Below are positions 36,670-51,467 of a DNA stretch of 64,000 nucleotides, piece after piece. A model generated the notes under the pieces. It ran no database searches. It was given only the letters and a program-made list of their open reading frames with translations, and was not told the DNA's origin. Location: positions 33,735 through 97,734 of the forward strand of contig CAZVHI010000009.1 in NCBI GenBank assembly GCA_964627205.1. Direction: 5' to 3'. Within the stretch, counting starts at the first letter, position 1; each line of letters opens with the position of its first letter. The position numbers and the translations under genes are program-made. Source of the DNA: an uncultured bacterium. GTDB taxonomy: Bacteria > Krumholzibacteriota > Krumholzibacteriia > JACNKJ01.

Positions 36670-38586
36670 ATGACGCGACAGGAACTCACCCGCAGCCTCC
36701 GCGAGATCGTGGGCGAGTCCGTGCGCCTTCAGGAGGATCTGCCCAGCCGCCGCCTCTACTCGCGCGACCTGGCGGACGTCCCGAAGCCCTTCCGCCGCCT
36801 CTTCCGCTCGGTCCCCGACCTGGTCGTCCAGCCCCGCGGGCTGGAGGATCTCAGCGCCATCGCCCGCCTGGCCCAGAAGGCCAGGATCCCCGTGCTACCA
36901 CGCGGGATCGGTAGTTGGGGTTACGGCGGCGCCATCCCCACTCAGGCCGGGCTCGTCATCGACCTGGCCCGGATGAAGAGGATCAGCGAGCCCGTGGGGC
37001 ACGAGATCCTGGTCGAGGCGGGCGCGCGCTGGGGCGAGCTGGATTTCTTCCTGGAAGGCCGCGGGCTGCGCTTCCCGGTCCATCCCTCCAACCGCTACGG
37101 CACGGTCGGTGGGTGGTTCGCCACCGGCGGCTATGGCCTGAACGGCCTCCGCCATGGGCACGCGAGTCGCCATGTCTCGTCGCTCGTGGTCGTGCTCCCC
37201 GACGGCACCCTGCGCGAGATCAGCGCGGAAGACCCCGAGTTCTCTCTTTGGTTCGGCAGCGAGGGACAGCTGGGAACCCTGGCCGCCGTCCGGCTCAAGC
37301 TGATGCCACAGGCTGCCGCGGACCGTCCGCTGCTCCTCTATTTCCAGAGCTTCGAGAAGGCCTGCGAGTGGATGCTCCGCCTGCGCGACCTGCCCACGCC
37401 GCCCGCAACCGCCAAGGCCCTGGATGCGGCGCACATGCGCGCGATCATCGCCAGCCATCATCGACGCCGCCCCGGCGGCCCCGACATCCTGGAGCCCAGG
37501 GACGCTCTGCTCCTCCACTTCGATGACAAACAGGCTTTCGAGCGCTTCGTCCGCGAGTTCGGCGGCGTGGAGGGCCGCTTCGAGAGCGGCGACGCCCGCC
37601 GCGCCCCCGACTGGGTGGCCAGCTATCTCTGGGGCGATCGCTATCACCCCCTGAAGGTGCAGCTCCTGGGGCCCGGCCTCCTGGCCTCCGAACATCTCTT
37701 CGACCCGGATCGTTACGGGCGCTTCGTCCTCAGGGCGCGGCGCGCCGCGGCGCGCTTCGGACGCGAGCTGATACTGGAGGCCATGCTCGTCCGCAGCGGC
37801 GAGGAGACGCAGATCCTGAGCCTGGCCACTTGGATCACGGACAAGCGCGCCGATGCGGCCCATCTGCTGCACCTCGCGCTGGCCCCGCTGCTCACCCGCC
37901 TCGGCGTCCGTGTGGGCGGACGCCCCTACGGGCTGGGCATCTGGAACGGCCCCTTCTTCCGGCACCGCTTCCTGGGCCGCAAGGGGCAGAAGATCATGGC
38001 CCTGAAGAGGCGCATCGATCCCGGCGGCGTGCAGAATCCCGGCAAGTTCCATCGCGTCCGCACCCGGGGCCCCCTCTCCACCCTCTTCTTCCACCCGGCC
38101 ATCTTCGAGGGGCTCCTGGACCTCGGCCTGCTCTTCTCACCGCTCCTGGGCGCCTTCGCCCGCGGCGCCAGCCGGGGCGCGGCCAGGGCCGACGCGGCAG
38201 AGAGCCTGCTCGCCCGAGCCGTGGAGGACTGCACCAACTGCGGCAACTGCGTGACCGTCTGTCCGGCCTGGACGCTCACTGGCCACGAGCAGACCACGGG
38301 CCGCGGCAAGCTCTTCCTGGCCAGCAAGCTGCTCGCGGGGGAGACGATCGAGAAGGGCGAGAGCGACTGGGCCCAGCACTGCACGGTCTGCGCGGCCTGC
38401 GCGGACGTCTGCCAGACGGAGATCCCGCTCGTGGAGGCCTACGCCGAGCTGGAGAGGGAGCTGGCGTCGCGGCACGGGCGCCCCGAGGAACAGATCCGGG
38501 CTTTCGTGGAGAGCCTGGGCGGCGAGGACGACTACCTGCGCCTGATCGGCAGCGAGCCCTATGGAGAGCGGCATGTCGTCGGGTAA
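36670..38586 (+). CDS. FAD-linked oxidase (GlcD/D-lactate dehydrogenase-like FAD_binding_4) fused to a C-terminal cysteine-rich Fe-S (CCG/ferredoxin-like) domain
   Basis: FAD-binding segment (IPVLPRGIGSWGYGGA, GGWFATGGYG). C-terminal CTNCGNCVTVCPAW and CTVCAACADVCQTEIP clusters. Confidence 0.75.
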   Translation: MTRQELTRSLREIVGESVRLQEDLPSRRLYSRDLADVPKPFRRLFRSVPDLVVQPRGLEDLSAIARLAQKARIPVLPRGIGSWGYGGAIPTQAGLVIDLARMKRISEPVGHEILVEAGARWGELDFFLEGRGLRFPVHPSNRYGTVGGWFATGGYGLNGLRHGHASRHVSSLVVVLPDGTLREISAEDPEFSLWFGSEGQLGTLAAVRLKLMPQAAADRPLLLYFQSFEKACEWMLRLRDLPTPPATAKALDAAHMRAIIASHHRRRPGGPDILEPRDALLLHFDDKQAFERFVREFGGVEGRFESGDARRAPDWVASYLWGDRYHPLKVQLLGPGLLASEHLFDPDRYGRFVLRARRAAARFGRELILEAMLVRSGEETQILSLATWITDKRADAAHLLHLALAPLLTRLGVRVGGRPYGLGIWNGPFFRHRFLGRKGQKIMALKRRIDPGGVQNPGKFHRVRTRGPLSTLFFHPAIFEGLLDLGLLFSPLLGAFARGASRGAARADAAESLLARAVEDCTNCGNCVTVCPAWTLTGHEQTTGRGKLFLASKLLAGETIEKGESDWAQHCTVCAACADVCQTEIPLVEAYAELERELASRHGRPEEQIRAFVESLGGEDDYLRLIGSEPYGERHVVG

Positions 38587-41500
38587 ATTCCACATCGAGA
38601 ACCGCATCGCCGAGCCCCGCTTCACGCCCAAGGGGCGCTTCTCGATCGCGCGGAATCTGGACGAGTGCATCAACTGCGGCAAGTGCGCGGCCCTCTGCGT
38701 CTACGGCGTGCACGGCCGCGAGGAGCTCGACTATCGCAAGATGGCCGAGCCCATCGACTACCTCTGCCGCGACTGCTTCATGTGCACGCAGGGCTGCCCC
38801 GAGCAGGCGCTGACGATCGGCATCAATCCCGACTTCATGGCCCGGGGCGACGGCCTCTTCAAGCCGGAGATCGTCGCGAGCCTGATGGAGCAGTCCAACC
38901 GCGGCAGCCTGCCGGTCTTCGGCGCGGGCTACCGCGGCCGCTTCTCCGGCCCGGGCTTCGACGCCATGTGGACCGACATGAGCGAGATCGTGCGACCCAC
39001 GCGCGACGGCATCCACGGCCGCGAGTACATCAGCACCGCCGTGGACCTCGGGCGGAAGCCCATGGATCTGTGCGGACTGGAGTTCGACGAGAAGGGCGAC
39101 CCGCTCTTCAACATCCCGCCGACGGTCGAGATCAAGCTGCCGATCCTCTTCGGCCGCCTGCGCTTCTCGCCTGCGGACGAGGCCATCCTGAGCGCCCTGG
39201 CCGCGGCGGCCGTCGAGCTGGGCACCTTCCTCGTGCTGGACGCCGAACGGATCGACGAAACCCTGCAGGCGAGCCGTCACCACCTGATCCCCAGCCTGGA
39301 CCCGTCCCTCTACAGCTGGTCGAAGATGGCCGAGATCGCCCGGGACGAGTGGTTCATCGAGCTGCGCAACGACCGCGACCTGGCCGGCCTCGTGCGGGGA
39401 CTGAAGGAGCTGAAGCCCGACCTGATCATCATGGCCGAGCTGGCACTGGACGGGAAGGCGGCCGAGAGCGAGGCGCGGGCCGCCGAGCTCGTGGAGAGCG
39501 GCGTGGACATCCTCCACCTGAGCCTCGACCCCTACGCGCCGGGCAACGTGGCCGGCGAGCCTCCCGGTCCCGGCACCGTGGCCGACGCGCTCCCCCTCGT
39601 CCACCAGGGCCTCGTGCGCAGGGGCATCCGCGACGAGGTGAGTATCGTGGTCAGCGGCGACATCGCCATGGCCGAGCACGTGCCCAAGTCCATCATCCTC
39701 GGCGCCGATGCCGTGGCCGTCGACACGCCCCTGCTCATCGCCCTCGAGTGCACGGTCTGCGGCGACTGCAAGGTAGACAAGCCCTGCCCCATGGAGCTCG
39801 AGAAGATCGGCTTGCGTTGGGGCCAGGCGCGCGTCGTCAACCTCATGGCCAGCTGGCAGAACCAGCTCCTCGAGATCCTGGGCGCCATGGGCCTGCGCGA
39901 GGTGAGCCGCCTGCGCGGGGAGATGGGGCGCGCGATCTTCAAGGAGGATCTGGACGACGAGCTCCTCTCCGGCCTGAAGCGGGCCGGTCCCGCCGAGCTG
40001 GCGTCCGAGCTTGCGAGCGTGGGCATGTCCAAGCCCACGGCGCCACGCAGGGTCACGAGCGCGGACGAACCCGTACCCGGGCTCCTGCCCGTACCGCGAC
40101 GGGAGATGATGGAGCGCCACTGGCACCGCAGCATGGTCCAGTCGGTGGAGACGGAACAGCAGGGCGGCAGGCCCACGATCCCGCCGGACACGCGCGAGCT
40201 GATGACATTCCCCCTCGCGCTCTGGCGCGTCACCCGCGGCGACGACTGCATCGCCTGCGGGACCTGCGAGCGCGCCTGCCCGACGGGCGTGCACCTCCGC
40301 AAGCCCGGCCACAACCGGATGGAGCCCGCGCGCGCGCAGCTCTGCATGGGATCCGACTGCGCGGAGAAGGAGCCGAGCTGCGTCTTCCAGTGCCCGACCG
40401 AATCCCTGACCGTCGAGCCCAATCCCGAGATGGAGGCGCTGGGAGACGCGCGCTGGCCGCCGCGGATGATCGAGTCCAGCTTCCGCGTCGCCGAGGGGCG
40501 GCAGGAGATCCTGGCGGACTTCGAGACGGGCGCGAGCGGCGGCGGCTTCGACCGTATCGTCTTCGACCGTGCGATCCCGACACCGGCGAGCGGCGCGCCG
40601 GAACCCGAGATCGACCTGTCCCTGCCGCTCAACCGCCGCGGCGAGGGGCCCGAGCGCACGCTGTCGCTCCCCATCTACGGCGGGGGCATGTCCTACGGCT
40701 CGATCGGGCCGGAGGTCATGCTCGCGCGGGCCATGGCGGCGCGCGAGCTCGACATCCTCACCTGCACCGGCGAGGGCGGCTACCCCGAGTTCCTCGAGCC
40801 CTACGCGGATTGGGTCATCACGCAGGTCGCCACGGGGCTCTTCGGCGTCAGCGAGGATTCGCTCCGCCGCTCGCCCATGGTGGAGTTCAAGTATGCGCAG
40901 GGCGCCAAGCCGGGACTCGGCGGCCACCTGCTCGGCGAGAAGGTCACGCCCGACGTGGCGCGCATGCGCCAGAGCGTGGAGGAGCGGAGCTTGTTTTCGC
41001 CCTTCCCCTTCCACAGCGTCTACTCCGTGGAGGATCACAAGAAGCACATCGACTGGATCCTCGCCACGAACCCCGACGCGCTGATCAGCGTGAAGGTCTC
41101 CACGCCCAACGATGTGGACATGGTGGCCGTGGGCAGCTACTACGCTGGCGCGCACGTGCTGCACATCGACGGGGCCTACGGCGGCACGGGAGCCGCGCCG
41201 GAAATCGCCAAGAAGAACATCGCCATGCCCATCGAGTACGCCATCCCCAAGACCCACCGCTTCCTGGCGAACGAGGGCATCCGCAACGAGATCACGCTCA
41301 TCGCCTCGGGTGGCATCCGCACGGCGAGCGACATGGCCAAGGCGATCGCCCTGGGCGCCGACGGCATCGTGATCGGCACGTCCGAGCTGATCGCGCTCGA
41401 GTGCGTGCGCTGCGGCAACTGCGAGAGCTTCCGCGGCTGCCCGCGCGGCATCGCGACCACGGATCCCTACCTGGTGCGCTTCATGGACGCGAACTGGGGC

Positions 41501-41698
41501 AAGGAGCGCATCCTCAACATCTACCGGGCCTATGCGCGCGGGCTGCGGCACATCCTCTCGCAGCTCGGGCTGAAGCGGATCGCCGACCTGCGCGGCCAAA
41601 CCGAGTACCTGCGCCTCACGGATCAGGACCCGGCCCTGCAGCCTGATGCCGTCGCGGAGGCGAGCCGGAGCGCGGAGGAGGGGCAGCATGTCGAGTAG
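38573..41698 (+). CDS. Glutamate synthase-related large protein: N-terminal 2x[4Fe-4S] ferredoxin, a degenerate TIM-barrel copy, inserted ferredoxin domains, and a canonical GltS FMN-binding domain
   Basis: Ferredoxin clusters (CINCGKCAALC, CRDCFMCTQGCP, CTVCGDCKVDKPCP, CIACGTCERACP). GltS FMN-domain motifs (GGMSYGSIGPE, KYAQGAKPGLGGHLLGEKV, GGTGAAPEI, ASGGIRTASDMAKAIALGADG). Overlaps the upstream gene by ~14-26 bp. Confidence 0.75.
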   Translation: MSSGKFHIENRIAEPRFTPKGRFSIARNLDECINCGKCAALCVYGVHGREELDYRKMAEPIDYLCRDCFMCTQGCPEQALTIGINPDFMARGDGLFKPEIVASLMEQSNRGSLPVFGAGYRGRFSGPGFDAMWTDMSEIVRPTRDGIHGREYISTAVDLGRKPMDLCGLEFDEKGDPLFNIPPTVEIKLPILFGRLRFSPADEAILSALAAAAVELGTFLVLDAERIDETLQASRHHLIPSLDPSLYSWSKMAEIARDEWFIELRNDRDLAGLVRGLKELKPDLIIMAELALDGKAAESEARAAELVESGVDILHLSLDPYAPGNVAGEPPGPGTVADALPLVHQGLVRRGIRDEVSIVVSGDIAMAEHVPKSIILGADAVAVDTPLLIALECTVCGDCKVDKPCPMELEKIGLRWGQARVVNLMASWQNQLLEILGAMGLREVSRLRGEMGRAIFKEDLDDELLSGLKRAGPAELASELASVGMSKPTAPRRVTSADEPVPGLLPVPRREMMERHWHRSMVQSVETEQQGGRPTIPPDTRELMTFPLALWRVTRGDDCIACGTCERACPTGVHLRKPGHNRMEPARAQLCMGSDCAEKEPSCVFQCPTESLTVEPNPEMEALGDARWPPRMIESSFRVAEGRQEILADFETGASGGGFDRIVFDRAIPTPASGAPEPEIDLSLPLNRRGEGPERTLSLPIYGGGMSYGSIGPEVMLARAMAARELDILTCTGEGGYPEFLEPYADWVITQVATGLFGVSEDSLRRSPMVEFKYAQGAKPGLGGHLLGEKVTPDVARMRQSVEERSLFSPFPFHSVYSVEDHKKHIDWILATNPDALISVKVSTPNDVDMVAVGSYYAGAHVLHIDGAYGGTGAAPEIAKKNIAMPIEYAIPKTHRFLANEGIRNEITLIASGGIRTASDMAKAIALGADGIVIGTSELIALECVRCGNCESFRGCPRGIATTDPYLVRFMDANWGKERILNIYRAYARGLRHILSQLGLKRIADLRGQTEYLRLTDQDPALQPDAVAEASRSAEEGQHVE

Positions 41699-44225
41699 AC
41701 GCCTCGGTCTTCCGATTCACCGACGCACGAGCGAAGAGGGCGGCTGCGGAGTCATCGGCTGTGTCTCCTCGGAGCCCATCGCCGGGCGCCACCTCATCAG
41801 GCCCCTGGCCCAGATGCACAACCGCGGCAACGGCAAGGGCGGCGGCCTCGCCGTGGCCGGCTGCTTCGAGGAGCACAAGGAGCGCTTCGCGCTGCAGGTG
41901 GGCTACCTCGACCGGGCGGTGCAGGGCGAGCTCGAGGAGGCCTTCGTCCGGCCCCTCTTCGACGTGACCCACGAGGAGGACCAGCCCGAGCTGAGAGACC
42001 ACCGCGAGGTGCCCGGGCTGAAGATCCGCCCGCCGGGCGTGCGGCGCTACTTCGTGCGCGTTCGCGAGGATCGCCTGCGCGAGTTCATGCTGGACCGCGG
42101 GATCAAGAACGCGCTCGAGGCCGAGCAGCTCATGATCTACGAGAACAGCGTGGCGCTGAACCGGCGCTTCTACGTGGACGACCCGCGCGCCTTCGTGCTC
42201 AGCCACGGCCGGAATCTCATGGTGCTCAAGGGCGTGGCCTATGCCGAACAGGTGGCTCTCTTCTACCGCCTCGACGACTTCGAGGCGAACATCTGGATCG
42301 GCCACCAGCGCTATCCCACCCGCGGACGCGTCTGGCACCCGGGCGGTGCCCATCCCTTCGTCGGGCTCAACGAGGCCCTGGTCCACAACGGCGACTTCGC
42401 CAATTATCACTCCGTGCGGGAGTACCTGCTGCAGCGGGGCATGGAGCCGCTCTTCCTCACCGACACCGAGGTGGCCGTCCTCCTCTTCGACTACTACACG
42501 CGTGTACTCGGCTACGACTTCGAGCAGACGGTCGAAGCCCTGGCGCCCACGAGCGAGCGCGACTTCACGCTGCTGCCCAAGCAGAGGCAGCGCCTCTACC
42601 AGGCCCTGCGCAGCGCCCACATCCACGGCAGCCCCGACGGCCCCTGGTTCTTCATCATCGCGCGCAGCTTCGCCGCGAGCGACGAACTCGAGCTGATCGG
42701 GATCACCGACACGAGCATGCTGCGCCCCCACGTCTTCAGCCTGAGCGGCGGTTCTTTCCCCATCGGCTGCGTGGCCAGCGAGCGCCAGGCCATCGACGCG
42801 CTACTCGAGGGCCTGGCCGCCGAGGATCCGCGCGTGTCGCCCGTGCCCGAGGACCGCTGGTCCTGCCGCGGCGGCAGCCACGTGGACGGCGGCACCTACC
42901 GCTTCACCCTCGGCGCGCCCGAGCGGCCGGGCTTCCGTCCCATCGTCTGCCGGGACAAGTTCGGCGACGAACGGCGGCTCCTCGGGGACCGCGAGGACTG
43001 GGCGCGGCCCGTCAGCATCGACACGGCTCCCACGGCCGGCGGCGCGAACGGCGAGGTCGCCGAGCTGCGCGACCGCTTCGGCGCCGAGGGCACGCCGGGT
43101 CTGCTCCGCGGCGTCCGCGAGTTTCTACCGCAGGCCGGCTACGATGGCTTGCGCAAGCTGGTGGGCACGTTCCTCGAGCTGGGTCGGAGCGACTGCAAGG
43201 CCGCTCTCGAGGCGCTCACCGCGCTCCGGGACCGTCCCACGGACATCGGCCGCATGAAACGCAGCTGGGTGGAGGCGACGATCCGACAGGGGATCTTCAC
43301 CCTCCTCGACGGCGTGGACAGCGGCCTGGGCGGCAACGGGGAGAGCGAAGGTTTCCTGCGCCGCGGCTGGGAGAGCCGCCAGGACATCCCCGCCGCCGCG
43401 AACGGCAGCTGCCTCGTCCTCGACGCGCGCGGCTTCCCCCCCGAGGGCGAGGGAAACCTCTCGCGCCTGGTGGCGGACGCCGCTGGCAGGGGCTGGCGGC
43501 GCTTCGTCCTCTACCGCCTGCGCGGGGACCGCTTCCTGGGCTGCGGGCTCGGCCGCGGCTCGGCGGGAGTGCGCATCGACACCTACGGCTCGGCCGGCGA
43601 CTACCTCGGCAGCGGCCTCGACGGCGCGGAGATCTACGTGCACGGCGACGCGCAGGACCAGGTGGGCCAGATCTTCGGCTCGGGCAGGCTCGTCGTCTAC
43701 GGCAATGTGGGGCAGGCCTTCCTCTACGGCGCGAAGGGCGGCGAGGCCTACGTCCACGGCAACACGGCGGGCCGCCCGCTGATCAACAGCGTCGGCGACA
43801 TCCGCTGCGTGGTCAACGGCACCTGCCTCGACTACGCCGCCGAGAGCTTCATGGCCGGCGAGGAGACCGGCGGTGGATTTCTCCTCATCAACGGCCTGCG
43901 CGTGAACGTCCACGGCGAGATCATGGGACTGGAAGAGCGCTACCCGGGCGGGAACTTCTTCAGCCTGGCCTCCGGCGGCGCTGGCTACGTGAACGATCCC
44001 TACCGCACGCTGAGCGAGGATCAGCTCAACGGCGCCAAGTTCGTCGACTTCACGCAGGAAGACTGGAGCTGCATCCTGCCCTACCTCGAGACCAACGAGG
44101 AACTCTTCGGCGTGTCGGTCGAGGCGGACCTGCTCACTGTCGACCGCACCCGGCGCTGGCCCGACGAGGTCTTCCGCAAGGTCGTGGCCCGGCCGATCGC
44201 GGTCCAGGGCGTCAGCCACGGCTGA
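41688..44225 (+). CDS. Glutamate synthase-related protein: class-II (Ntn) glutamine amidotransferase domain fused to GltS GXGXG (alpha-subunit C-terminal) domain
   Basis: N-terminal CGVIGCVS (Cys nucleophile after Met). HNRGNGKGGGLA. C-terminal GXGXG repeats (GSGLDGAEIYVHGDAQDQVGQIFGSGRLVVYGNVGQAF). Start overlaps the upstream stop by 11 nt. Confidence 0.75.
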   Translation: MSSRRLGLPIHRRTSEEGGCGVIGCVSSEPIAGRHLIRPLAQMHNRGNGKGGGLAVAGCFEEHKERFALQVGYLDRAVQGELEEAFVRPLFDVTHEEDQPELRDHREVPGLKIRPPGVRRYFVRVREDRLREFMLDRGIKNALEAEQLMIYENSVALNRRFYVDDPRAFVLSHGRNLMVLKGVAYAEQVALFYRLDDFEANIWIGHQRYPTRGRVWHPGGAHPFVGLNEALVHNGDFANYHSVREYLLQRGMEPLFLTDTEVAVLLFDYYTRVLGYDFEQTVEALAPTSERDFTLLPKQRQRLYQALRSAHIHGSPDGPWFFIIARSFAASDELELIGITDTSMLRPHVFSLSGGSFPIGCVASERQAIDALLEGLAAEDPRVSPVPEDRWSCRGGSHVDGGTYRFTLGAPERPGFRPIVCRDKFGDERRLLGDREDWARPVSIDTAPTAGGANGEVAELRDRFGAEGTPGLLRGVREFLPQAGYDGLRKLVGTFLELGRSDCKAALEALTALRDRPTDIGRMKRSWVEATIRQGIFTLLDGVDSGLGGNGESEGFLRRGWESRQDIPAAANGSCLVLDARGFPPEGEGNLSRLVADAAGRGWRRFVLYRLRGDRFLGCGLGRGSAGVRIDTYGSAGDYLGSGLDGAEIYVHGDAQDQVGQIFGSGRLVVYGNVGQAFLYGAKGGEAYVHGNTAGRPLINSVGDIRCVVNGTCLDYAAESFMAGEETGGGFLLINGLRVNVHGEIMGLEERYPGGNFFSLASGGAGYVNDPYRTLSEDQLNGAKFVDFTQEDWSCILPYLETNEELFGVSVEADLLTVDRTRRWPDEVFRKVVARPIAVQGVSHG

Positions 44226-44525
44226 TCCCGGCCTGGGCGCTTTAATTGACCAATCGGGGTCGCGTCCTCATGCTTCCCCATGATTTCCCATAGGTCCTCA
44301 TCATTTCTCATGCTTCCCCCCAGCCCAATACCAGCTTTTCTGGTCCGGTTGTATCATTTTCGAAAAATTAACTGGACCCATCCAAGTGCGGTATAATTGG
44401 CCTCGTACTGACATATCCCAGGTTCTTGGGTTCGGCCCATGAGCCGGTCGAGAACTACATCATGGGCTGCACCAACGGACCGAACTCAGGAAGAACACCA
44501 CCCCCATGTCTCCTGGGAGGGCATC

Positions 44526-45056
44526 ATGAAGAGAATACTGGTTCTGCTGACCCTGCTGGCTGCCGTCGCAGCGCCGGCCTTGGCCGATCGGGACATGACG
44601 GGCAGCTGGGCGGAGATCCAGGCCCCCGCCATCGCCAATCCCGGCGACACCGTCGTCTTCAAGCTCTTTGTTTTCAACGGTAGTCCGGACCTCGAGTGGA
44701 CCCGGGAAGTGATCATCTACTTCCCCGAGAACTTCGACGTGCTGGACGGCTGGTACGACGACCTCGGCCAGGACTGGGCCTTCGACTTCAGCATCGACGG
44801 CTTCCACGGCAACATCGCCGTCTTCACCGACGCCGATGGCGGTTTCGGCGAGATCTACGACGGCACCGGCGGCGAATTCTACGCGCAGGTCTACCTGCAC
44901 GAGAACGTTGACTGCGGGCCCATCCACATCGACTGGAAGCAGTGGGGCGACGGCTACGGCAGCGACCCCCACTGGATCCGGGGCGAGCTGCCCTACGTGC
45001 TCTGCGTGATTCCGACCCAAGAGAGCAGCTGGTCGACGGTCAAGAGCCTGTACTAG
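44526..45056 (+). CDS. Small secreted protein (paralogue 1 of 2) ending in C-terminal SWSTVKSLY
   Basis: gGAGGGcatcATG start context identical to paralogue 2. Signal peptide MKRILVLLTLLAAVAAPALA. Conserved blocks shared with paralogue 2 (EW..E.II.FP, DADGG.GEIY.G.GG.F, PH...GE). Ends ...SSWSTVKSLY*. Confidence 0.75.
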   Translation: MKRILVLLTLLAAVAAPALADRDMTGSWAEIQAPAIANPGDTVVFKLFVFNGSPDLEWTREVIIYFPENFDVLDGWYDDLGQDWAFDFSIDGFHGNIAVFTDADGGFGEIYDGTGGEFYAQVYLHENVDCGPIHIDWKQWGDGYGSDPHWIRGELPYVLCVIPTQESSWSTVKSLY

Positions 45057-45113
45057 AAGCGACCCGGGCCGACTGGATCCGGCCCCGGGCTCGGCTCGAA
45101 TAGCACCCAGGAA

Positions 45114-45137
45114 ACCCGCGCACGCACGCGGGTTTTC
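45114..45137 (+). terminator. Rho-independent terminator after paralogue 1
   Basis: CCCGCG-cacgca-CGCGGG stem followed by TTTTCG. Confidence 0.55.
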
Positions 45138-45345
45138 GCATGTTTCGGGTGGTTTATCTTGAAATTTTAGAGATTCGCATCTCTTGAACCCTTCCCCGCA
45201 TTCCTGCCATAGTTTGAGACGCTGGGAGCGTTAATGCGCATAACAGGAGTTCGCGAACCCGCTCTCGGCGAGGCCACTGGAAGAGCCCCCATGGAAGGCT
45301 CGTATACCGGATTCCGGGTACAACATTGCAGCAATGGAGGGCATC

Positions 45346-45885
45346 ATGAAGAAACTGTTTCTGACAGTCGCGGTGCTGGCTCTATTCGCAACACCAGCAC
45401 TGGCCGACCGCAGTATAGAGGGTAGTTACGTAGAACTTATCGAACCGCAGGGATTGCTCTGCGCGTGCTCGACCTATGAGTTCGTCTTCTACGTCTGGAA
45501 CAACTCCATGGATGTGGAGTGGATCGCCGAAATCATCATCACCTTCCCCGACTGCTGGGAGATCGTGGCCGGTTCCGACTGGTACACGCCGGATCCCGGC
45601 GCCGCGGGTCCCTTCAACTTCATGTTCATCGGTGGCGGTAACGTGGCCCACTGGGCGGACGCCGATGGAGGCTGGGGCGAGATCTACGGCGGCGAGGGTG
45701 GACACTTCGGCGTGACCGTTCACATCTGCCCCGACATGGTGGGCGATGTGCCGATCTACTGGGGCCTGCAGGGCGACATCTACGGCAACGAGCCGCACTA
45801 TGTCGACGGCGAAATCTGGGTCATTGTCTCCGACACCACACCAGTCGAGGACAGCACCTGGAGCAAGGTCAAGGGCCTCTACTAG
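45346..45885 (+). CDS. Small secreted protein (paralogue 2 of 2) ending in C-terminal TWSKVKGLY
   Basis: Signal peptide MKKLFLTVAVLALFATPALA. ~40% identity to paralogue 1 across the mature region. Ends ...DSTWSKVKGLY*. Confidence 0.75.
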   Translation: MKKLFLTVAVLALFATPALADRSIEGSYVELIEPQGLLCACSTYEFVFYVWNNSMDVEWIAEIIITFPDCWEIVAGSDWYTPDPGAAGPFNFMFIGGGNVAHWADADGGWGEIYGGEGGHFGVTVHICPDMVGDVPIYWGLQGDIYGNEPHYVDGEIWVIVSDTTPVEDSTWSKVKGLY

Positions 45886-45922: not shown

Positions 45923-45955
45923 AGCCGCTCCGGTTCTTCCGGAGCGGCTCTTTTT
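45923..45955. terminator. Rho-independent terminator (11-bp perfect stem, TTTTT tail) after paralogue 2, shared with the convergent giant gene
   Basis: AGCCGCTCCGG-ttctt-CCGGAGCGGCT followed by CTTTTTG. Confidence 0.7.
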
Positions 45956-46029: not shown

Positions 46030-49000
46030 CTAGTCGAGTGAGATGCGATAGAGCGCGCCGCCGTTGCAGCCGGCCCAGAGCGTGCGTCCGTCCTCGCCAA
46101 GACGCAGGTGCCAGACGGAGCCGTTGCCCGGGCGCATCCCAAACGGCGACCAGCTCGCGCCCGCGTCGCGGCTGACGAAGACGCCCCAGTGGTTCAGGCC
46201 GACATAGATCGTGCCCGCCTCGCTACCCGCAGCGATGGAGCGAGCGTGCGGACTTGGGATTCCCGCGTTCACCTCTTCCCAGCTCTCCCCGCCGTCGCGG
46301 CTGCGCAGCACACCGCCGCGCGAGACCGCCGCGTAGACGAGGGACGCGTCCTCCGCGTCGACCGCGAAGCCCTTGACGCCCGTGCGCGGGCGATTCCAGA
46401 CCTCGCGCCAGCTCTCCCCGCCGTCGTCGCTTATCAGAATTCCCTTCCCGTATGTGCCCAACAGCGCCTTGCCTTCGGCGCCCGGCAGGGCGATCACCGC
46501 GTAGGCGTCGACACGACCCGGTCCGGACTCGGGCCGCCGCCACTCGGCGCCCCGCTCCAGCCCGAGGTAGACACCGCCGCCGGGCCCCGAGGCGGCGGCG
46601 AGGAGGTCGCCATTCGGGAAGACGGCCAGCATGTTCGCGCGCAGCGTACCGAGCGCGTCGGTGGCTAGGATCCAGCTTTCGCCGCCGTTGTCCGAGCGAT
46701 ACACCCCATCCGCGCAGGCGGCGAAGAGGCGATGTGTCTCCTCGTCGAAGGCGAGGCTCCAGGCAAAGCTCTTCTCCGGCTCGGGCCCCGCGAAGATCCA
46801 TGCGTCCGTACTACTCCCGTGAGCGCGGGAAAACACGCCGCTCGACGTGGCCGCATAGAGGCGCGGCTCGCCCTGCCAACTCAGCTCCTCGAGCCACCAC
46901 ACCGACGCGGCGCCGAGGCCCGCGCTGCTCGGCGTCCAGCTCGCACCGGAGTTTACGCTTCGGGCTGCGCCGCTTCCCGTGGCGGCCAGCAGCGTGCCGT
47001 CCTCTCCACGCCACGCGAGTGCGCGCACAATAGGATCGGCGAGGCCCTCGCCTTGCAGATGCCAGGGCTCCGAGCCCTCGAGCCACGCGACGCCCTTCCC
47101 GTTGCAGGCAGCGGCGATCCTGCCCGCGCCGGGCTCGCGGTATAGGCGGTAGATGCCCACGCGCTCCAGACCGGGCGCGGCCTCGCGCCAGCTCAGCCCG
47201 CCGTCCGTGCTCTGGAAGACGCCGCTGGAGCTGCCGACGAGGATGCGCGCACCGCCGTCGGCGGCGAGGAGGTCCCAGACGGGGGTCTTGCCGAGGCCCT
47301 CGCCGTGGAGCTCCCAGCTTGCGCCGCGGTCGCGCGAGAGGTGGAAGTCGCCGCGCCCGCCGGCGAGGACGCGATCGCCCTCCTCGTCCAGCGGCAGGAG
47401 GCAGAGCACGCGCTCGCCGCTCGCGGAGCCGGAGGCCGGCTCCCAGTGCGCGCCGCGGTCGGCGCTGCGAAAGATCCCCTGCTCCGTGGCCGCGAGGACT
47501 TCATCACTCGCGGGCAGGACGAGCAGATCCCAGCAGCGCGGCGCGTCCCCGGGGTAGGCGCCGCGCTCCCAGTTCGCGCCGCCGTCCGCGCTGCGGAAGA
47601 CGCCACTCGAGCTGCCGACGTAGAGCAGGCCACTCGCGTCGCGGGCGAGGCAGGAGACCCAGTAGTTCTCCAGCGCAGCGCCGCGGGGCGCCCAGCTCTC
47701 GCCGAAGTCCGTGGACCGGAAGATGCCCGCCCCGTGCACGGCGGCGAGTACGGTATCGCCGCCGGCGAAGGCGAGCAAGTCGTGCAGCGCGCCGCCCGGC
47801 GGGGCCAGGACACGCTCCCAGGCCGGCGCCGCTACGACGGGGCGGGGTGTCGGGGAGGCGGCGGCGCGGGGGACGGGCGCGTCCGCAGCGCGAGGCGACG
47901 CGGCGGCGGTCCCCCGCCCGCGCAGCACGGCGATGTCGTCGCTGTGGTAGTTCGACACCACGACGTCGTCGAAACCGTCGCGGTCGAAGTCGCCCACGAC
48001 GAGCGACATGGGCGTGTTGTTCACGCCGTAGGCAGCGTCCAGGACGAAGGTGCCGTCACCTCTGCCCAGGAGTAGAAGCACGTTGTCGCCGTGGAAGTCG
48101 GCCACCGCGAGGTCGCTGTTGCCGTCGCGATCGAAGTCGCCGGGAGCGAGGTGGCGGGGGCGCACGCCACGGCTGCAGTCCGTGCCCGTGATGCGGCAGG
48201 ACGAGCCACCCGCCCAGCCGACGTCCGGCAGGTCCGACTCCGCGAAGGTGCCTTTGCCGTCCCCCGTCAGAATGATCACCTGCCCACCGAAGAAGTCGGC
48301 GACGGCCAGGTCGAGGTGCCTGTCGGCGTTCCAGTCGCCGGCGACGGCCGCGCGCGGGCCGAGGCCCACCGGCAGGCTCTCGCCGAGGCGGAAGGCGCCG
48401 CCTTCCTTCCCGAAGAGCAAGGTCAGCGTGGCGTCGTCGCGGCTGAGCACGGCCACGTCCTCGCGCCCGTCCTCGTCGAAGTCGCCCGCGACGAGGTAGC
48501 ACGCGGCCTTGCCGATCTCGCCGCCGAGCGGCTCGCCGAAGCTGCCGTCGCCGCGGCCGAGCAGCAGGGTGGCCGTGCCGCTCCAGTGGTTCGCCGCCAT
48601 GATGTCGAGCGCGCGGTCGCCATCGGCGTCGAGGGCGAGGAGGCCCCAGGGGCCGTCGCCCATCGGGATCGCCTCCGCTTCGGCGAGGGAGCCGTCCCCC
48701 GCGCCGCGGAGGAGCGTGAGGGTGTTGCGCTGGTGGTTCGCCGAGATCACGTCGCTCTTGCCGTCGGCGTCGAAGTCCGCCGCGCAGACGTACCAGGATT
48801 GTGCGCCGATCGGGAAGGAGCTCGCGAGTTCGAACGAGGCGCCAGTCCCCCCGAGGAGCAGGGACACCGATTGCCCGAAGAGGTTGCCCACGGCGAGGTC
48901 GGGCAGGTCGTCCCCGTCGAAGTGGGCGAGGGCGAGGGAGGTCGGGCCGTCGCCGGCGGGAAAAAGGGGCGCGACCGCGAAGCTGCCGTCGCCGATGCCG

Positions 49001-50166
49001 AAGGCCAGCGAGAGATTGTCGCTGTAGAGGTTCGCCACGAGGAGGTCTGCGTGCGTGTCGCCGTCCATGTCCGCGGCCGCGAGGACTACGGGCTGTTCCC
49101 CGACCACGACGCGCCCGGCCGGCGCGAAGCTGCCGTCGCCCCTGCCGAGGAAGCAGGCGACGGCGTGCTCCTTGCGAAGGGCGCAGGCGAAGTCCAGGCG
49201 CGTGTCGCCGTCGAGGTCTGCGAGCGCGATGGCTTCCGGCTCCTTGCCCACCGCGATCTCGCTCGCCCGCTCGAAGCCGCCGCCGGGCAGGCCCCGCAGC
49301 AACGTGACGGCGCCTTCCCTCTTGCCGAGGACAAGAAGGTCGAACAGAGCGTCTTCGTCGACGAGGCCGCTCGCCAGCGCGGAGATAGACATGCCGACGT
49401 CCAGCGCGAACATCTCCTCGAATCCGCCGTCGGCTCGGCCGCGGAGTATGCTGACGTGTTCCTTGATGGCGGAGCCGATCGCGAGATCGATAAGCCCGTC
49501 GCGGTCCCAGTCGCCCGCGAGCAGCACGCTCGCCAGCCAGCGATTGCCGAGGGAACGGATTTCCGTCCACGTCTCGCCGCGACCTGTCCCGGCCCGGGCG
49601 TCATCGGTCTCCGCCCCTGCGCTGGCGCCGTCTTCCCCGGGCCTTGCGCGATAGACAGCGACACCGCTCTCCTCCCGATCCAGGAGGACGAGCTCGAGCC
49701 ATCCGTCGCCGTCCAGGTCGACGGGACAGCAGAGGCCTGCCGGCGGAAGCCCTGTCATCGCCGAGGGCACCTCGAAGCCGCCCTCGGCGCCGACGCGGAG
49801 CAGCATCATGCCCTCTTCGGTCGCGAGGATCAGCTCGGGAAGGCCGTCGCCCTCGAGATCGAGGAGCCAGGCCTGGCGGGGGACGAAGTCCAGCTCGAGG
49901 CGCTCGCCGCGCGCGAGGAGGCCGCCCGTCTGTCCCTGGAAGAAGCGCAGCCCCTCGCGCTCCAGCACGACGACGTCGGGGCTGCCGTCGCGGTCCATGT
50001 CGGCGACGGCCAGCCAGCGGGGATCCTTGTCGGTCGGGTAGTCGATGCGGGCTTCGAGGAGGCCAGGGCGGGAGGCGGCGTCCCCTCCGCTCAGCGCGAG
50101 GAGACAGACGATCAGCAAGACTGAGGACAAGGCGATGCAGGGTCCGCGCGCGAGGGGCCCGGTCAA
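46030..50166 (-). CDS. Giant secreted protein (1378 aa): N-terminal FG-GAP/VCBS repeat region plus C-terminal BNR/Asp-box (sortilin/Ycf48-like) beta-propeller repeats
   Basis: Signal peptide (LSSVLLIVCLLALSGG). FG-GAP repeats (DFDADGKSDV, DFDEDGREDV, DFDRDGNSDL, DFDRDGFDDV). More than 8 BNR motifs (SxDGGESW, SRDAGASW, SDNGGESW). TTG start overlaps the TGA of the upstream membrane GT gene (TTGA). Confidence 0.75.
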   Translation of the reverse strand: MTGPLARGPCIALSSVLLIVCLLALSGGDAASRPGLLEARIDYPTDKDPRWLAVADMDRDGSPDVVVLEREGLRFFQGQTGGLLARGERLELDFVPRQAWLLDLEGDGLPELILATEEGMMLLRVGAEGGFEVPSAMTGLPPAGLCCPVDLDGDGWLELVLLDREESGVAVYRARPGEDGASAGAETDDARAGTGRGETWTEIRSLGNRWLASVLLAGDWDRDGLIDLAIGSAIKEHVSILRGRADGGFEEMFALDVGMSISALASGLVDEDALFDLLVLGKREGAVTLLRGLPGGGFERASEIAVGKEPEAIALADLDGDTRLDFACALRKEHAVACFLGRGDGSFAPAGRVVVGEQPVVLAAADMDGDTHADLLVANLYSDNLSLAFGIGDGSFAVAPLFPAGDGPTSLALAHFDGDDLPDLAVGNLFGQSVSLLLGGTGASFELASSFPIGAQSWYVCAADFDADGKSDVISANHQRNTLTLLRGAGDGSLAEAEAIPMGDGPWGLLALDADGDRALDIMAANHWSGTATLLLGRGDGSFGEPLGGEIGKAACYLVAGDFDEDGREDVAVLSRDDATLTLLFGKEGGAFRLGESLPVGLGPRAAVAGDWNADRHLDLAVADFFGGQVIILTGDGKGTFAESDLPDVGWAGGSSCRITGTDCSRGVRPRHLAPGDFDRDGNSDLAVADFHGDNVLLLLGRGDGTFVLDAAYGVNNTPMSLVVGDFDRDGFDDVVVSNYHSDDIAVLRGRGTAAASPRAADAPVPRAAASPTPRPVVAAPAWERVLAPPGGALHDLLAFAGGDTVLAAVHGAGIFRSTDFGESWAPRGAALENYWVSCLARDASGLLYVGSSSGVFRSADGGANWERGAYPGDAPRCWDLLVLPASDEVLAATEQGIFRSADRGAHWEPASGSASGERVLCLLPLDEEGDRVLAGGRGDFHLSRDRGASWELHGEGLGKTPVWDLLAADGGARILVGSSSGVFQSTDGGLSWREAAPGLERVGIYRLYREPGAGRIAAACNGKGVAWLEGSEPWHLQGEGLADPIVRALAWRGEDGTLLAATGSGAARSVNSGASWTPSSAGLGAASVWWLEELSWQGEPRLYAATSSGVFSRAHGSSTDAWIFAGPEPEKSFAWSLAFDEETHRLFAACADGVYRSDNGGESWILATDALGTLRANMLAVFPNGDLLAAASGPGGGVYLGLERGAEWRRPESGPGRVDAYAVIALPGAEGKALLGTYGKGILISDDGGESWREVWNRPRTGVKGFAVDAEDASLVYAAVSRGGVLRSRDGGESWEEVNAGIPSPHARSIAAGSEAGTIYVGLNHWGVFVSRDAGASWSPFGMRPGNGSVWHLRLGEDGRTLWAGCNGGALYRISLD

Positions 50167-51467
50167 CGCTGCACGTCCTCGTTCCGCTCCACGTCCTCAC
50201 TCCGCTCCACATCCCCGTTCAGCTCGAGGCTGCGGCGCTTGAGCTCCAGGAATCGCGCCTTCTTGGCCTGGGTCTCGGGCAGACGCGCCCTCTCCTCGTA
50301 GGCCTTGTCCAGGGTCGAGACGACGAAGACCGACGAGATGATGAAATAGGCGGGAACCAGCAGTGGCACTAGCCTGCGCGCGCCCCTCCCGACCAGCACG
50401 CGGAACATCTTCATGGTTCCCGTGGCGAGGATCAGGCAGAAGCCCGCCGAGGCCAGGTAGAGGTACTTCGTGTTCAGCCAGAAGCCTGGCGTGTAGAAGA
50501 AACAGAAGGGTAAAATGGTCACGAAGGCCCAGGCGATGAAGAAGCGCAGGGTCGTGTTGCCGAAGACGAAGCCGTAGGCGGCGTAGCTGAAGATCACGGT
50601 GCCCAGGATCGGCCGGATCCAGCTGCTCCAGTTGAAGAGGAAGGTGAGAAAGCCGCTGCCCTCCACGACGTCGGAATAGTGCAGCGGGTAGACCATGTGG
50701 ATCAGGTAGCCGGGAATGTTACTGAGGAAGTTGCCCAGGAAGAAACCGATCCCCCAGCCCTCGGGATAGGACGAGCTGACCGCCTTGAACGCGGCCCACT
50801 GGAAGCCGGTCAGGACGCCGCCGAACACGAGCAGGATCAGGATCGGCCCGGCGAGGACCGGACGCTGCCGCTCTTTCTTGAAGAATACGTTGTATGCGAG
50901 GAGCACGCCGATGCCGCTCAGGAAGGCGAACTTGTTGATGATCGAGAGGGCGAAGAAGAAGAGCGTGCCCGCGAACCAGACGGAGAGGATACGCCCCTTG
51001 CCCTGGGTCTCGTTCATCACGTAGAACATGACGGTCAGAAGGAAGACCGTGTGCATGAGGATGCCGCTCACACCCGCGGCGTACATCACCTCCTTACCGT
51101 AGTTGCCCACGGTGAACGCGAAGAGGATGGCGCTCAGGAAGGCCACGCCGAAGTCCCGCAGCGTCTGGTGGACGAGGAGGAAGAGGAGGAAGGCGTTGAT
51201 GGCGTGGATGAAGATGTTCAGCAGGTAGTAGCCCGCCGGCCTGTCGCCGAAGAGCGCGTACTCCAGGCGGTGGAAGCTGTTCACCAGCGGGTGGGCCTCG
51301 GAGGTGGCCTGGACGTAGTCCTCCTCCGGTTGCACGTCGAGACTCTTGGCCAGGTACTCGAACTCCGCGTCGGTCCAGAACTCGTTGTCGAGGATCTGGG
51401 CGAACAGCAGCACGCTGATCCCGAACAGGATCAGGAAGAGCAACGCATTGTTGTCTTTGAGCGACAT
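50163..51467 (-). CDS. Polytopic membrane protein, TMTC/DUF1736-like GT-C glycosyltransferase family (paralogue of 19249-20742)
   Basis: Multiple TM helices. Loop motif VNSFHRLEYALFGDRPAGYYLLNIFIHAINAFLLFLLV. ATG at 51467; the long N-terminal Arg-rich extension in the ORF track was rejected. Translationally coupled to the giant gene. Confidence 0.65.
   Translation of the reverse strand: MSLKDNNALLFLILFGISVLLFAQILDNEFWTDAEFEYLAKSLDVQPEEDYVQATSEAHPLVNSFHRLEYALFGDRPAGYYLLNIFIHAINAFLLFLLVHQTLRDFGVAFLSAILFAFTVGNYGKEVMYAAGVSGILMHTVFLLTVMFYVMNETQGKGRILSVWFAGTLFFFALSIINKFAFLSGIGVLLAYNVFFKKERQRPVLAGPILILLVFGGVLTGFQWAAFKAVSSSYPEGWGIGFFLGNFLSNIPGYLIHMVYPLHYSDVVEGSGFLTFLFNWSSWIRPILGTVIFSYAAYGFVFGNTTLRFFIAWAFVTILPFCFFYTPGFWLNTKYLYLASAGFCLILATGTMKMFRVLVGRGARRLVPLLVPAYFIISSVFVVSTLDKAYEERARLPETQAKKARFLELKRRSLELNGDVERSEDVERNEDVQR

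Follow-up and report, generated by a model that had tools for sequence, protein, structure and literature searches.

Two adjacent genes on the forward strand of the window, the whole stretch of 64,000 nucleotides of uncultured Krumholzibacteriota DNA that was analyzed, probably encode exported single-domain binding modules: old tandem paralogues, separately transcribed, each ending in a short and previously undescribed sorting or retention tag. Sequence comparisons indicate that the domain, which stands alone in these two proteins, also occurs inside hundreds of large secreted hydrolases, and that the tag is a portable, strictly C-terminal element that many otherwise unrelated exported proteins share in Krumholzibacteriota, Eisenbacteria and related uncultured lineages.

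Gene A (positions 44526 to 45056, plus strand) and gene B (45346 to 45885, plus strand) encode proteins of 176 and 179 residues that share one architecture, which in A consists of a signal peptide at residues 1 to 20 (cleavage between ALA and DR), a core at residues ~22 to 160 and the tag at residues ~162 to 176; the tag reads IPTQESSWSTVKSLY in A and TPVEDSTWSKVKGLY in B. Both open reading frames were found with the ends that an earlier note on this DNA had claimed, starting from the ATG codons at 44526 and 45346, and both genes had the GC3 > GC1 > GC2 pattern of coding sequence. For gene B, the ATG at 45346 was favored over a start at 45334 because the ribosome binding site GGAGGG lies 4 nucleotides upstream of it. 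Alignment by BLASTP gave 40% identity across the full length of A and B (E = 3e-38), confirming that they are real paralogues with the level of identity that the earlier note had estimated. The near-identical start contexts that it had pointed out were also recovered, as a repeat scan identified a 17-nucleotide block, GGAGGGCATCATGAAGA, that spans the ribosome binding site and start and is identical in both genes. Each N terminus consists of MK(R/K), a hydrophobic stretch and PALA followed by DR, in agreement with the proposed Sec-type signal peptides ending in ALADR, and the conserved blocks and SWSxVKxLY ends were likewise present in both proteins. The predicted mature N termini are DRDMTG in A and DRSIEG in B. 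Homologues of 169 to 191 residues with the same architecture were found in many metagenomes and metagenome-assembled genomes (MAGs), and the concern that the reading frames might be spurious, with no relatives outside the contig, did not hold. Neighboring genes in the window encode glutamate-synthase-like proteins, an FG-GAP/BNR protein, a GT-C-like membrane protein and an MFS transporter.

The two proteins had been assigned to an unrecognized family. This was correct in that A and B had no Pfam or NCBIfam match at E ≤ 1, but the family is not isolated: profile searches with the ~135-residue core retrieved 573 cluster representatives at E ≤ 1e-3, 297 of them at E ≤ 1e-10. Among these representatives, large secreted hydrolases with C-terminal domains of the type IX secretion system (T9SS) form the majority, and the core is one internal module in them. 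Ten large members that were scanned contained Peptidase_C25, M28, S8, C39_2 or Kelch domains, together with FlgD_ig or Por_Secre_tail in several of them. Since the domain serves T9SS-secreted peptidases and Kelch proteins as an accessory module, A and B themselves are likely to be free-standing binding modules and not enzymes or toxins. A profile search of PDB sequences returned only a spurious cold-shock match (E = 0.77).

Three near-invariant loops were identified in the core, namely N51-x-S53-x-D55-x-E57-W58, D102-x-D-G-G-x-G-E and G141-D142-x-x-G145-x-x-P148-H149, and the embedded modules keep the N-x-S-x-D-x-E-W and G-D-x-x-G-x-x-P-H motifs near-invariant as well. Residues N51, S53, D55, E57, W58, P67, G108, G141, D142, G145, P148 and H149 were 81 to 100% conserved among 57 free-standing members and 96 to 100% conserved among 98 embedded modules. 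The structure prediction that the earlier note had called for was run with AlphaFold and gave a model (pLDDT 82.8, pTM 0.73) made up of a signal helix, nine strands and, at residues 168 to 175, a short C-terminal helix of low confidence (pLDDT ~50), so that the core is predicted to be a nine-strand beta-sandwich. Foldseek matched the model to cohesins, integrin calf/thigh domains, YcnI and Gram-positive pilins; these are generic fold matches with modest TM scores of 0.45 to 0.55 on query length and up to 0.72 on target length. Judging from the strand order in the model, the three conserved loops should lie at one end of the sandwich, and by analogy with domains of the lectin or carbohydrate-binding-module type this suggests a predicted metal- or ligand-binding site. 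Alternatively, the conserved set of His, Asp, Ser and Glu residues could be catalytic or purely structural. An adhesin-type or cell-envelope binding role, one of those first proposed for the pair, appears to be the most reasonable reading of sequence and model. As a widespread accessory domain of secreted peptidases for which there is no model, and with an unusually sharp conserved site, the core is a candidate for a new domain family.

At most loci the family occurs as arrays of two to three copies, and the copies within one tandem array belong to separate subclades shared between genomes. As read from these sequences, the tandem duplication is old, and the side-by-side retention of the subclades in many genomes suggests either different specificities or mixed assembly. 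No neighboring gene was found to be common to all lineages; the GT-C/MFS block is confined to Krumholzibacteriia, and Eisenbacteria-type loci differ.

Separate transcription of A and B forms part of the joint reading given at the outset. The promoter scan called a promoter in the A/B region for A alone, a sigma-70-like TTAACT-18-TATAAT sequence (44368 to 44397, plus strand) that matches at 10 of 12 positions and lies ~130 nucleotides 5' of the ATG. For gene B we infer a promoter, TTGAAC-18-CATAGT (45184 to 45213, plus strand), from reading the sequence; with matches at only 8 of 12 positions it falls short of the scan threshold, and the earlier assertion that each gene has its own promoter is therefore firm for A and weak for B. 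In other genomes, near-consensus promoters were seen by eye 100 to 150 nucleotides upstream of most family genes, and in four of them most family genes were preceded, again by eye, by a promoter-like TTGACx-17-TATAxT of their own. The clean Rho-independent terminators attributed to both genes fared similarly. Downstream of gene B, the scan called an intrinsic terminator (45923 to 45955, plus strand) with an 11-pair GC-rich stem at 45923 to 45949 followed by CTTTTTG (z = -4.67). The terminator-like hairpin downstream of gene A (45110 to 45137, plus strand) has an 11-pair stem and a 6-nucleotide loop and folds with z = -3.35, but it was not called by the scan because its T-run lies mostly within the stem, leaving a weak and interrupted tail. 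Separate regulatory regions for A and B were thus supported by the scan calls for promoter A and terminator B and by the significant folding of both hairpins.

The upstream regions of both genes are lower in GC than the window, as had been noticed (0.49 to 0.56 versus 0.676). They had also been said to share a TTCCCC...ATTCC...CCATAG element, and the window does contain exactly two copies, at 44274 to 44293 and 45192 to 45212, although the pattern was written from those two and the count in the window is circular. The first copy is included in a run of about five repeats of the TYCYCATNNT type with a 10-bp period (44264 to 44319, plus strand; repeat family D2, spacing 10, 10, 10) located 5' of promoter A, the second coincides with the spacer and -10 element of the putative promoter of gene B, and the distance to the ATG differs between the two genes. 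The string was not found in the equivalent regions of the loci of other genomes and, being genome specific, was rejected as a conserved regulatory site. A search of the whole locus with Rfam gave nothing significant, and no riboswitch or leader RNA was recognized in the long 5' regions.

The tag of ~15 residues has the consensus [TV][AP]xE[ED][ST][ST]-W-[SG]-x-[VI]-K-x-L-Y(-R), in which the residue after Lys is typically Ala or Ser. Trp (92 to 97%), Lys (95 to 97%) and Tyr (92 to 100%) are strongly conserved at a fixed distance from the C terminus, a nearly invariant Ser or Thr stands beside the invariant Trp, and acidic and Ser/Thr residues are kept upstream. Overall, 157 matches to the tag were terminal and 5 internal, as in 455,591 residues of six-frame open reading frames 48 matches were C-terminal and 2 internal, and in 394 kb of sequence 109 were terminal and 3 were not. 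In a metagenome scan, 84 of 86 matches were followed directly by a stop codon; the tag-bearing genes were scattered over contigs, and just 11 of the 86 belonged to the A/B family, the others falling into at least 20 sequence clusters. By a crude test, 48 of the 62 non-family tagged reading frames of at least 100 residues had a Sec-type signal peptide, and some of the remaining 14 run off contig ends. Positions -7 to -2 were conserved across unrelated cargo even though the search pattern left them unconstrained. The tail had been regarded as dedicated to the A/B pair, a view that proved untenable, since at least 25 unrelated Sec-exported protein families of the clade carry it. One of these is a third protein of the window (27072 to 28094, minus strand), in which a signal peptide and a passenger of right-handed beta-helix/PMP repeats precede the tag ATATAELSWSAVKALY. 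The cargo also includes Big_5, PPC, cupredoxin, AhpC/TSA and MAM-like proteins as well as Beta_helix/PMP proteins, and for most tagged families Pfam gives no match. The tag itself matched no model in Pfam or NCBIfam, and no description of it was found in the literature by full-text searches with the tail string or with Krumholzibacteriota or Eisenbacteria combined with secretion or sorting.

Several assignments of the tag to known kinds of C-terminal element were rejected. An outer-membrane beta-signal is contradicted by the lack of alternation among the hydrophobic residues, by a low beta-type hydrophobic moment of 0.09 to 0.16 in two of the three tags of the window, by the soluble sandwiches that precede the tag and by the many tags that end in Arg. 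A PDZ-type C-terminal ligand was dismissed because many tags end in an extra Arg or Asn, and a covalent link through the Lys because this residue is sometimes Arg. A conserved Cys located 9 to 10 residues before the Trp was assigned to the passenger and not to the tag because a T9SS-type paralogue shares it.

That paralogue, a second beta-helix protein of the window (22281 to 23846, minus strand), carries a T9SS C-terminal domain (FlgD_ig, Pfam) at the junction in place of the tag. The two beta-helix paralogues align up to ...NDCG.L.GA..GC..TA and then diverge, one continuing with a 12-residue tail and the other with a T9SS domain of ~95 residues. At the C terminus, relatives of the A/B domain have a T9SS domain, a true IPTL-CTERM (Pfam, E = 4e-6) or another hydrophobic stretch with basic residues after it. 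These alignments indicate that the tag holds the slot that is filled in homologues by a T9SS domain or an IPTL-CTERM anchor.

We tentatively propose, as a possibility short of an even chance, that the tag is the signal of an undescribed envelope pathway for sorting, anchoring or modification that runs parallel to type IX secretion in Krumholzibacteriota, Eisenbacteria and related lineages, with a cargo of possibly dozens to hundreds of proteins per genome. On the more probable joint reading given at the outset, A and B are exported by Sec and would be cut after ALA by signal peptidase I to give mature proteins of ~155 residues, and an envelope component would then recognize the tag and direct the protein to the cell envelope or surface, or retain it there. 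Cupredoxin-like and TlpA-like redoxin proteins, which usually reside in the periplasm, are among the cargo, and what the tag marks may therefore be retention in the periplasm instead of display at the surface. The combination of strict C-terminal position and signal peptide provides a bioinformatic handle for finding the machinery, of which the GT-C-like membrane enzyme beside the A/B array is one candidate component.

This enzyme is a 434-residue multipass membrane protein (50163 to 51467, minus strand), probably a GT-C-fold glycosyltransferase by its fold matches, and its presence raises the unlikely alternative that the tag is a sequon for glycosylation or another modification, at which a lipid-carried glycan would be moved onto the [ST][ST] pair or the Trp in the periplasm. 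There are precedents in the O-oligosaccharyltransferases encoded beside pilin genes and in the protein O- and C-mannosyltransferases. The protein is the immediate convergent neighbor of the tandem array in six other genomes (loci L007, L008/L014, L018, L125 and L126) despite differing outer flanks, is 57 to 73% identical across Krumholzibacteriia and has a distant homologue in a polysaccharide gene cluster; at Eisenbacteria-type loci, the arrays adjoin GT4 and sugar-modifying genes, and the position of the near-invariant Ser or Thr next to the Trp would suit such a sequon. All matches of its AlphaFold model (pLDDT 77.5) with TM ≥ 0.4 or probability ≥ 0.8 were GT-C proteins, including the protein-modifying enzymes STT3A, Pmt4, Pmt1/2 and DPY19. 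However, these matches are weak (best E 1.9e-3, TM 0.42 to 0.45), and neither Pfam nor NCBIfam finds anything in the protein. Homologues of the enzyme came from Krumholzibacteriia only; the tag, in contrast, reaches Eisenbacteria-type lineages, and the scattered tagged genes are not tied to the enzyme. In the window a 4.1-kb gene separates it from the array, and the adjacency is possibly inherited gene order. A link between the membrane protein and the A/B pair is only suggested.

A recognized sorting tag must also be weighed against the improbable case of a tail that acts by itself, as a two-turn amphipathic helix that anchors the protein peripherally at the periplasmic face of a membrane, with Trp, Val/Ile, Leu and Tyr on one face, the Lys snorkeling and no machinery involved. 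Low-molecular-weight penicillin-binding proteins are anchored at the membrane by C-terminal amphipathic helices. The tag has the i, i+3, i+6/7 pattern of hydrophobic residues with interfacial Trp, Tyr and Lys/Arg, AlphaFold placed its short helix there, the normally periplasmic cupredoxin and AhpC/TSA redoxins are among its cargo, and true transmembrane anchors replace the tail in homologues. But the helix spans only about eight residues, is predicted with the low confidence given above and has low hydrophobicity, with a hydrophobic moment of 0.26 to 0.43 compared with 0.45 to 0.57 for the membrane-targeting helices of MinD and FtsA. In addition, conservation of Trp, Lys and Tyr at 92% or more at a fixed C-terminal distance resembles specific protein recognition, whereas generic amphipathic anchors drift.

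A role of A and B as subunits of a surface fiber of the pilin or fimbria type, assembled by strand or tail insertion with the paralogues as major and minor subunits, is very unlikely. Small Ig-like sandwiches encoded by paralogues in tandem, every copy with a promoter and a terminator of its own, would fit such a role, and the Gram-positive pilins SpaD and BcpA were among the Foldseek matches. Against this, gene tables of seven genomes showed no usher, chaperone, sortase or pilus-assembly genes beside the arrays, A and B lack an LPXTG motif, and the modeled nine-strand sandwich is complete, no strand being evidently absent; membership of the chaperone-usher or sortase pilins was rejected on these grounds. 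The domain is also an internal module of peptidases, and polymerization is unlikely for the enzymes and redox proteins that also carry the tail. The earlier suggestion of bacteriocin-like toxins or secreted effectors, to which the small size, secretion and duplication of A and B lend themselves, received no support and can practically be discounted, class II bacteriocins and leader-peptide toxins included, as the leader is of the Sec type with an AxA cleavage site (ALA before DR) and not a double-glycine leader, gene tables and Pfam searches of the window and six other genomes revealed neither an immunity gene nor a peptidase-ABC exporter nor modification enzymes nearby, large hydrolases use the core as a conserved accessory domain, and the arrays hold a stable, nonmobile position across genomes.

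The A/B domain resembles several known beta-sandwich modules in its predicted fold class. Cohesins, which have a nine-strand jelly-roll fold, were the top Foldseek matches to the nine-strand model (E ~1e-6), though only at TM 0.40 to 0.56; A and B had no Pfam match to cohesin PF00963, and just one of 55 members matched a "TMEM132 cohesin-like" model at 0.047. A role of the tag as a mini-dockerin would be speculative. The predicted Ig-like fold class is also that of CARDB/DUF11-type domains; DUF11 was matched by 6 of 55 members (best E = 0.021), below the gathering score, and A and B themselves had no match to CARDB or DUF11. Sub-threshold Pfam matches of a few members were to DUF11, NPCBM_assoc and DUF1775. 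The TM of 0.72 on target length was to YcnI/DUF1775, with a DUF1775 match in 1 of 55 members (E = 0.022, below threshold). The copper site of YcnI uses an N-terminal His, which the mature N termini of A and B lack, and membership of this copper-binding family was rejected. The signature loops NxSxDxEW and GDxxGxxPH set the A/B family apart from the cohesin, Ig-like and YcnI modules.

The tag itself is closest to two kinds of C-terminal element. Like the T9SS domains of the Fibrobacteres-Chlorobi-Bacteroidetes (FCB) group (Por_Secre_tail/FlgD_ig), it is C-terminal on Sec-exported proteins of the same organisms and follows the same junction, but the T9SS domain is folded and has ~70 to 100 residues, whereas the tag has ~15 residues, forms at most two helical turns and shows no sequence similarity to it. 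Pfam detected true T9SS domains in other proteins of the window; A and B had no match to Por_Secre_tail, FlgD_ig or TIGR04183 at E ≤ 1 and have only ~15 residues after the sandwich, and they were rejected as T9SS cargo. By eye, the start (VPT(M/L)S(E/Q)WGM(I/L)) and end (YLRRK) of IPTL-CTERM appear to resemble the tag, written as (I/S)PTxE(S/T)(S/T)W(S/G)x(V/I)KxLY(R). In IPTL- and PEP-CTERM, however, a signature motif precedes a transmembrane helix and a terminal cluster of Arg/Lys residues, and the hydrophobic stretch of the tag has only ~7 residues, interrupted midway by a Lys. With no membrane-spanning stretch after the Trp, and with the IPTL-CTERM model scoring only two members that have a full anchor, the tag was not assigned to this class. 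Host phyla related to the FCB group are common in sediments and sludge. Other C-terminal sorting signals, among them LPXTG, PEP-CTERM, the T9SS C-terminal domain and GlyGly-CTERM, have each led to a dedicated envelope machine and outlined the surface proteins of entire phyla. If the proposed pathway exists, the tag would mark a large and mostly unannotated exported proteome in uncultured FCB-related phyla. It would then be the shortest of such signals, lacking both a transmembrane segment and a folded domain.

The tandem genes A (44526-45056, +) and B (45346-45885, +), which the earlier note had described as paralogues encoding small secreted proteins, were confirmed as such. They are co-directional ORFs of 176 and 179 residues starting at ATGs 44526 and 45346, both show the coding-type pattern GC3 > GC1 > GC2 expected at the window's 67.6% GC, and their products share 40% identity over their full length by BLASTP (E=3e-38). 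A 17-nt block spanning the ribosome-binding site and start codon, GGAGGGCATCATGAAGA, is identical in the two genes, which fixes these ATGs, and not the starts of longer ORFs, as the true starts. Each N terminus begins MK(R/K) and continues through a hydrophobic segment to PALA|DR, a standard signal-peptidase-I site without a lipobox cysteine. The genes and the features described for them are real.

The two genes have separate regulatory regions. For A, a consensus scan picked out a sigma-70-like promoter at 44368-44397 (TTAACT-18-TATAAT); for B, it listed a downstream terminator (45923-45949 plus CTTTTTG; folding z=-4.67). The hairpin after A (45110-45137) was also significant against shuffled sequence (z=-3.35). 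That hairpin has a weak T tail and is absent from the consensus-scan list, and the putative promoter of B (TTGAAC-18-CATAGT, 45184-45213) was recognized by eye and matches at 8/12 positions. In four other genomes, most of the family genes examined, again by eye, carry their own promoter-like TTGACx-17-TATAxT sequence approximately 100-150 nt upstream, which supports independent, and probably strong, transcription. The upstream regions of A and B are indeed lower in GC (down to 0.49-0.56) and share the element TTCCCC..ATTCC..CCATAG, which occurs exactly twice in the window when searched with a pattern itself derived from those two copies. However, its distance to the ATG differs between the genes, and it was not found in the corresponding upstream stretches elsewhere, in other genomes. 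At B it falls on the spacer and -10 of the putative promoter, and at A within 10-bp-period repeats (44264-44319); its meaning is uncertain. The repeats comprise about five head-to-tail units (GTCCTCATGC TTCCCCATGA TTTCCCATAG GTCCTCATCA TTTCTCATGC TTCCCC) located 50-100 nt upstream of A's -35 element. Their phasing of one helical turn hints at bent DNA or an array of protein-binding sites; no such repeats were seen upstream of B or in other genomes.

Neither Pfam nor NCBIfam recognizes A or B, and a word-indexed search of 5.8 billion proteins returned only about 15 relatives (173-182 residues, one of them from a Krumholzibacteriota MAG), all with the same signal peptide and tail. The earlier note's description of an unrecognized family is accurate to that extent, but the same domain proved to be embedded in hundreds of larger secreted proteins. 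A full HMM search with a 15-sequence profile recovered 573 cluster representatives at E<=1e-3 (297 at E<=1e-10), of which about 50, at 169-191 residues, stand alone; most of the others are 300-2,800 residues long, with profile positions ~20-160 forming one internal module. In ten large members, a Pfam scan identified gingipain-type Peptidase_C25, M28, S8, C39-like or Kelch domains, several of these proteins also bearing the type IX secretion (T9SS) domains FlgD_ig or Por_Secre_tail. In a species-level genome collection, free-standing members were found in Krumholzibacteriota, Candidatus Eisenbacteria and several other MAGs, and the embedded domain also in Cloacimonadota, Anaerolineae, Thermoanaerobaculales and one MAG labelled Bacteroidaceae. 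A and B are thus stand-alone versions of a widespread accessory domain of secreted hydrolases for which no model exists, probably of a binding type.

Structure prediction, which had been proposed alongside the HMM search as a check on the family, yielded a confident AlphaFold2 model from the 15-sequence alignment (pLDDT 82.8, pTM 0.73, core mostly >90), with a signal helix spanning residues 2-19, nine strands within 28-159, and a short helix at 168-175 (pLDDT ~50). The pattern of conservation says more: twelve residues (N51, S53, D55, E57, W58, P67, G108, G141, D142, G145, P148 and H149) are conserved at 81-100% in 57 free-standing copies and at 96-100% in 98 embedded copies. They lie in the loops that follow strands 2, 6 and 8, which, from the strand order, should sit at one end of the predicted sandwich. 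We infer a metal-dependent ligand-binding site of the lectin or carbohydrate-binding-module type, in keeping with the domain serving hydrolases as an accessory module. It is possible that these residues are instead catalytic or purely structural. That A and B are the subunits of a fibre is unlikely, and the bacteriocin-like role once offered for them was not supported.

As a rule, genes for free-standing members are found in arrays of two or three. In a neighbour-joining tree the members of one array fall into different subclades that are common to several genomes, indicating that the duplication is old and that both copies have been retained. No neighbouring gene is shared by every lineage; in at least six Krumholzibacteriia genomes, however, a block recurs between differing outer flanks, consisting of an MFS_3 transporter, a divergently oriented multipass membrane protein of 420-434 residues and the convergent array, frequently accompanied by a tagged MAM-like protein. 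In the window, a gene for a 1,378-aa FG-GAP/VCBS and BNR/sortilin-like repeat protein (46030-50166, -) separates the array from the membrane-protein gene; it looks like an insertion, since the two adjoin directly in the other genomes examined. The membrane protein itself (50163-51467, -; 434 aa) is 57-73% identical across Krumholzibacteriia and had no sequence match in Pfam, NCBIfam or PDB. The only fold matches of its AlphaFold model (pLDDT 77.5) at TM>=0.4 or probability>=0.8 were GT-C glycosyltransferases (STT3A, Pmt4, ALG12, DPY19, Pmt1/2 and EmbA/B), with weak E-values (best 1.9e-3), and a distant homologue sits in a polysaccharide gene cluster. Together these raise the possibility, as a lead only, that tagged proteins are glycosylated or bind an envelope glycan. 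Directly upstream of A, three consecutive genes (36670-44225, +) together resemble a split glutamate synthase, encoding FAD_binding_4 with 4Fe-4S, 4Fe-4S with a Glu_synthase FMN domain, and GATase with a GXGXG domain.

The most interesting part of the A/B finding is the tail, the last ~15 residues of both proteins. It had been taken as dedicated to the pair, but a third protein of the window, a signal peptide followed by a beta-helix/PMP-repeat passenger (27072-28094, -), ends in ELSWSAVKALY. In the window and non-redundant genome loci (455,591 six-frame ORF residues), a relaxed tail pattern occurred 48 times at the C terminus and twice internally, and tagged proteins outside the family included PPC-domain proteins, one MAM-like protein and three tandem AhpC/TSA-type redoxins. 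The genes for these TlpA-like redoxins, each tagged, lie a few kilobases from a single-copy A/B-family member in the loci L019 (12693-16519) and L025 (13597-15140) of MAGs CAYPGS and CAYFNT, and tandem sets are common among tagged genes (e.g., L066, L091, L098, L109 and L114). A codon-level scan of a metagenome collection for the pattern [ST]WxxVKxLY-stop gave 86 matches in 76 loci, with a true stop codon next in 84/86. Only 11 of the 86 belong to the A/B family, and the remainder fall into at least 20 sequence clusters. By a crude test, 48/62 non-family tagged ORFs of at least 100 residues carry a Sec-type signal peptide, and some of the other 14 run off contigs. Beta_helix/PMP (the largest), Big_5, PPC and cupredoxin were the clusters with Pfam matches; most clusters had none whatever. 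In the same loci (394 kb), the relaxed pattern was terminal in 109 cases, including 23 tagged ORFs missed by the strict pattern, and non-terminal in 3. The consensus of 152 non-identical tails is [TV][AP][VTA]E[ED][ST][ST]-W-[SG]-x-[VI]-K-[AS]-L-Y, with an additional R or N at the end in Eisenbacteria-type lineages; positions -7 to -2 are conserved across unrelated cargo, though free in the search pattern. The tag is matched by no model in Pfam or NCBIfam and is not mentioned in the papers searched. As judged from these sequences, the tail marks many families of exported proteins throughout the clade, and its position is strictly C-terminal.

The window contains the clearest case of exchanged C-terminal endings: the beta-helix protein at 27072-28094 has a paralogue there (22281-23846, -). 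The whole passenger aligns up to a common junction, ...NDCG.L.GA..GC..TA, past which one protein has a 12-residue tail and the other an FlgD_ig T9SS domain of ~95 residues; tag and T9SS domain are therefore alternative C-terminal endings in one organism. The pair, in which the short tag reads SWSAVKALY, amounts to a natural "anchor swap" in a single genome. Between the two genes (24303-25245, -), an HTH and nucleotidyltransferase gene and, after it, one encoding a nucleotidyltransferase substrate-binding protein resemble a toxin-antitoxin pair of the HEPN/MNT type. Proteins homologous to the A/B domain likewise differ in how they end: with the short tag, with a T9SS domain, with a true IPTL-CTERM anchor (Pfam E=4e-6, two members), or with another hydrophobic stretch and then basic residues. 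The tag thus alternates with T9SS and IPTL-CTERM signals.

Most likely, the tag is a short signal for sorting or retention of a kind not described before. A specific envelope protein would recognize it, leading to a sorting, retention or modification step; such recognition is suggested by the strict C-terminal position, the high conservation of the W, K, Y, [ST] pair and upstream acidic residues, the portability between unrelated proteins and the way it trades places with established sorting signals. A non-specific amphipathic anchor seems less likely: the hydrophobic moment of the tag is only 0.26-0.43, compared with 0.45-0.57 for the membrane helices of MinD and FtsA. The destination could be a periplasmic surface rather than the cell exterior, since some of the cargo, the cupredoxin and redoxin classes, is usually periplasmic.

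By eye, the IPTL-CTERM signal VPTMSEWGMIAF...LVYLRRK of the domain homologues P0150 and P0157 is similar to the tags IPTQESSWSTVKSLY and SPTEHTTWGQVKGLYR: the tag resembles IPTL-CTERM minus its membrane core, and IPTL-CTERM resembles the tag with a transmembrane core inserted. This likeness suggests that the two may have a common evolutionary origin. The finding as a whole would fall among the C-terminal protein-sorting tags on exported modular proteins.
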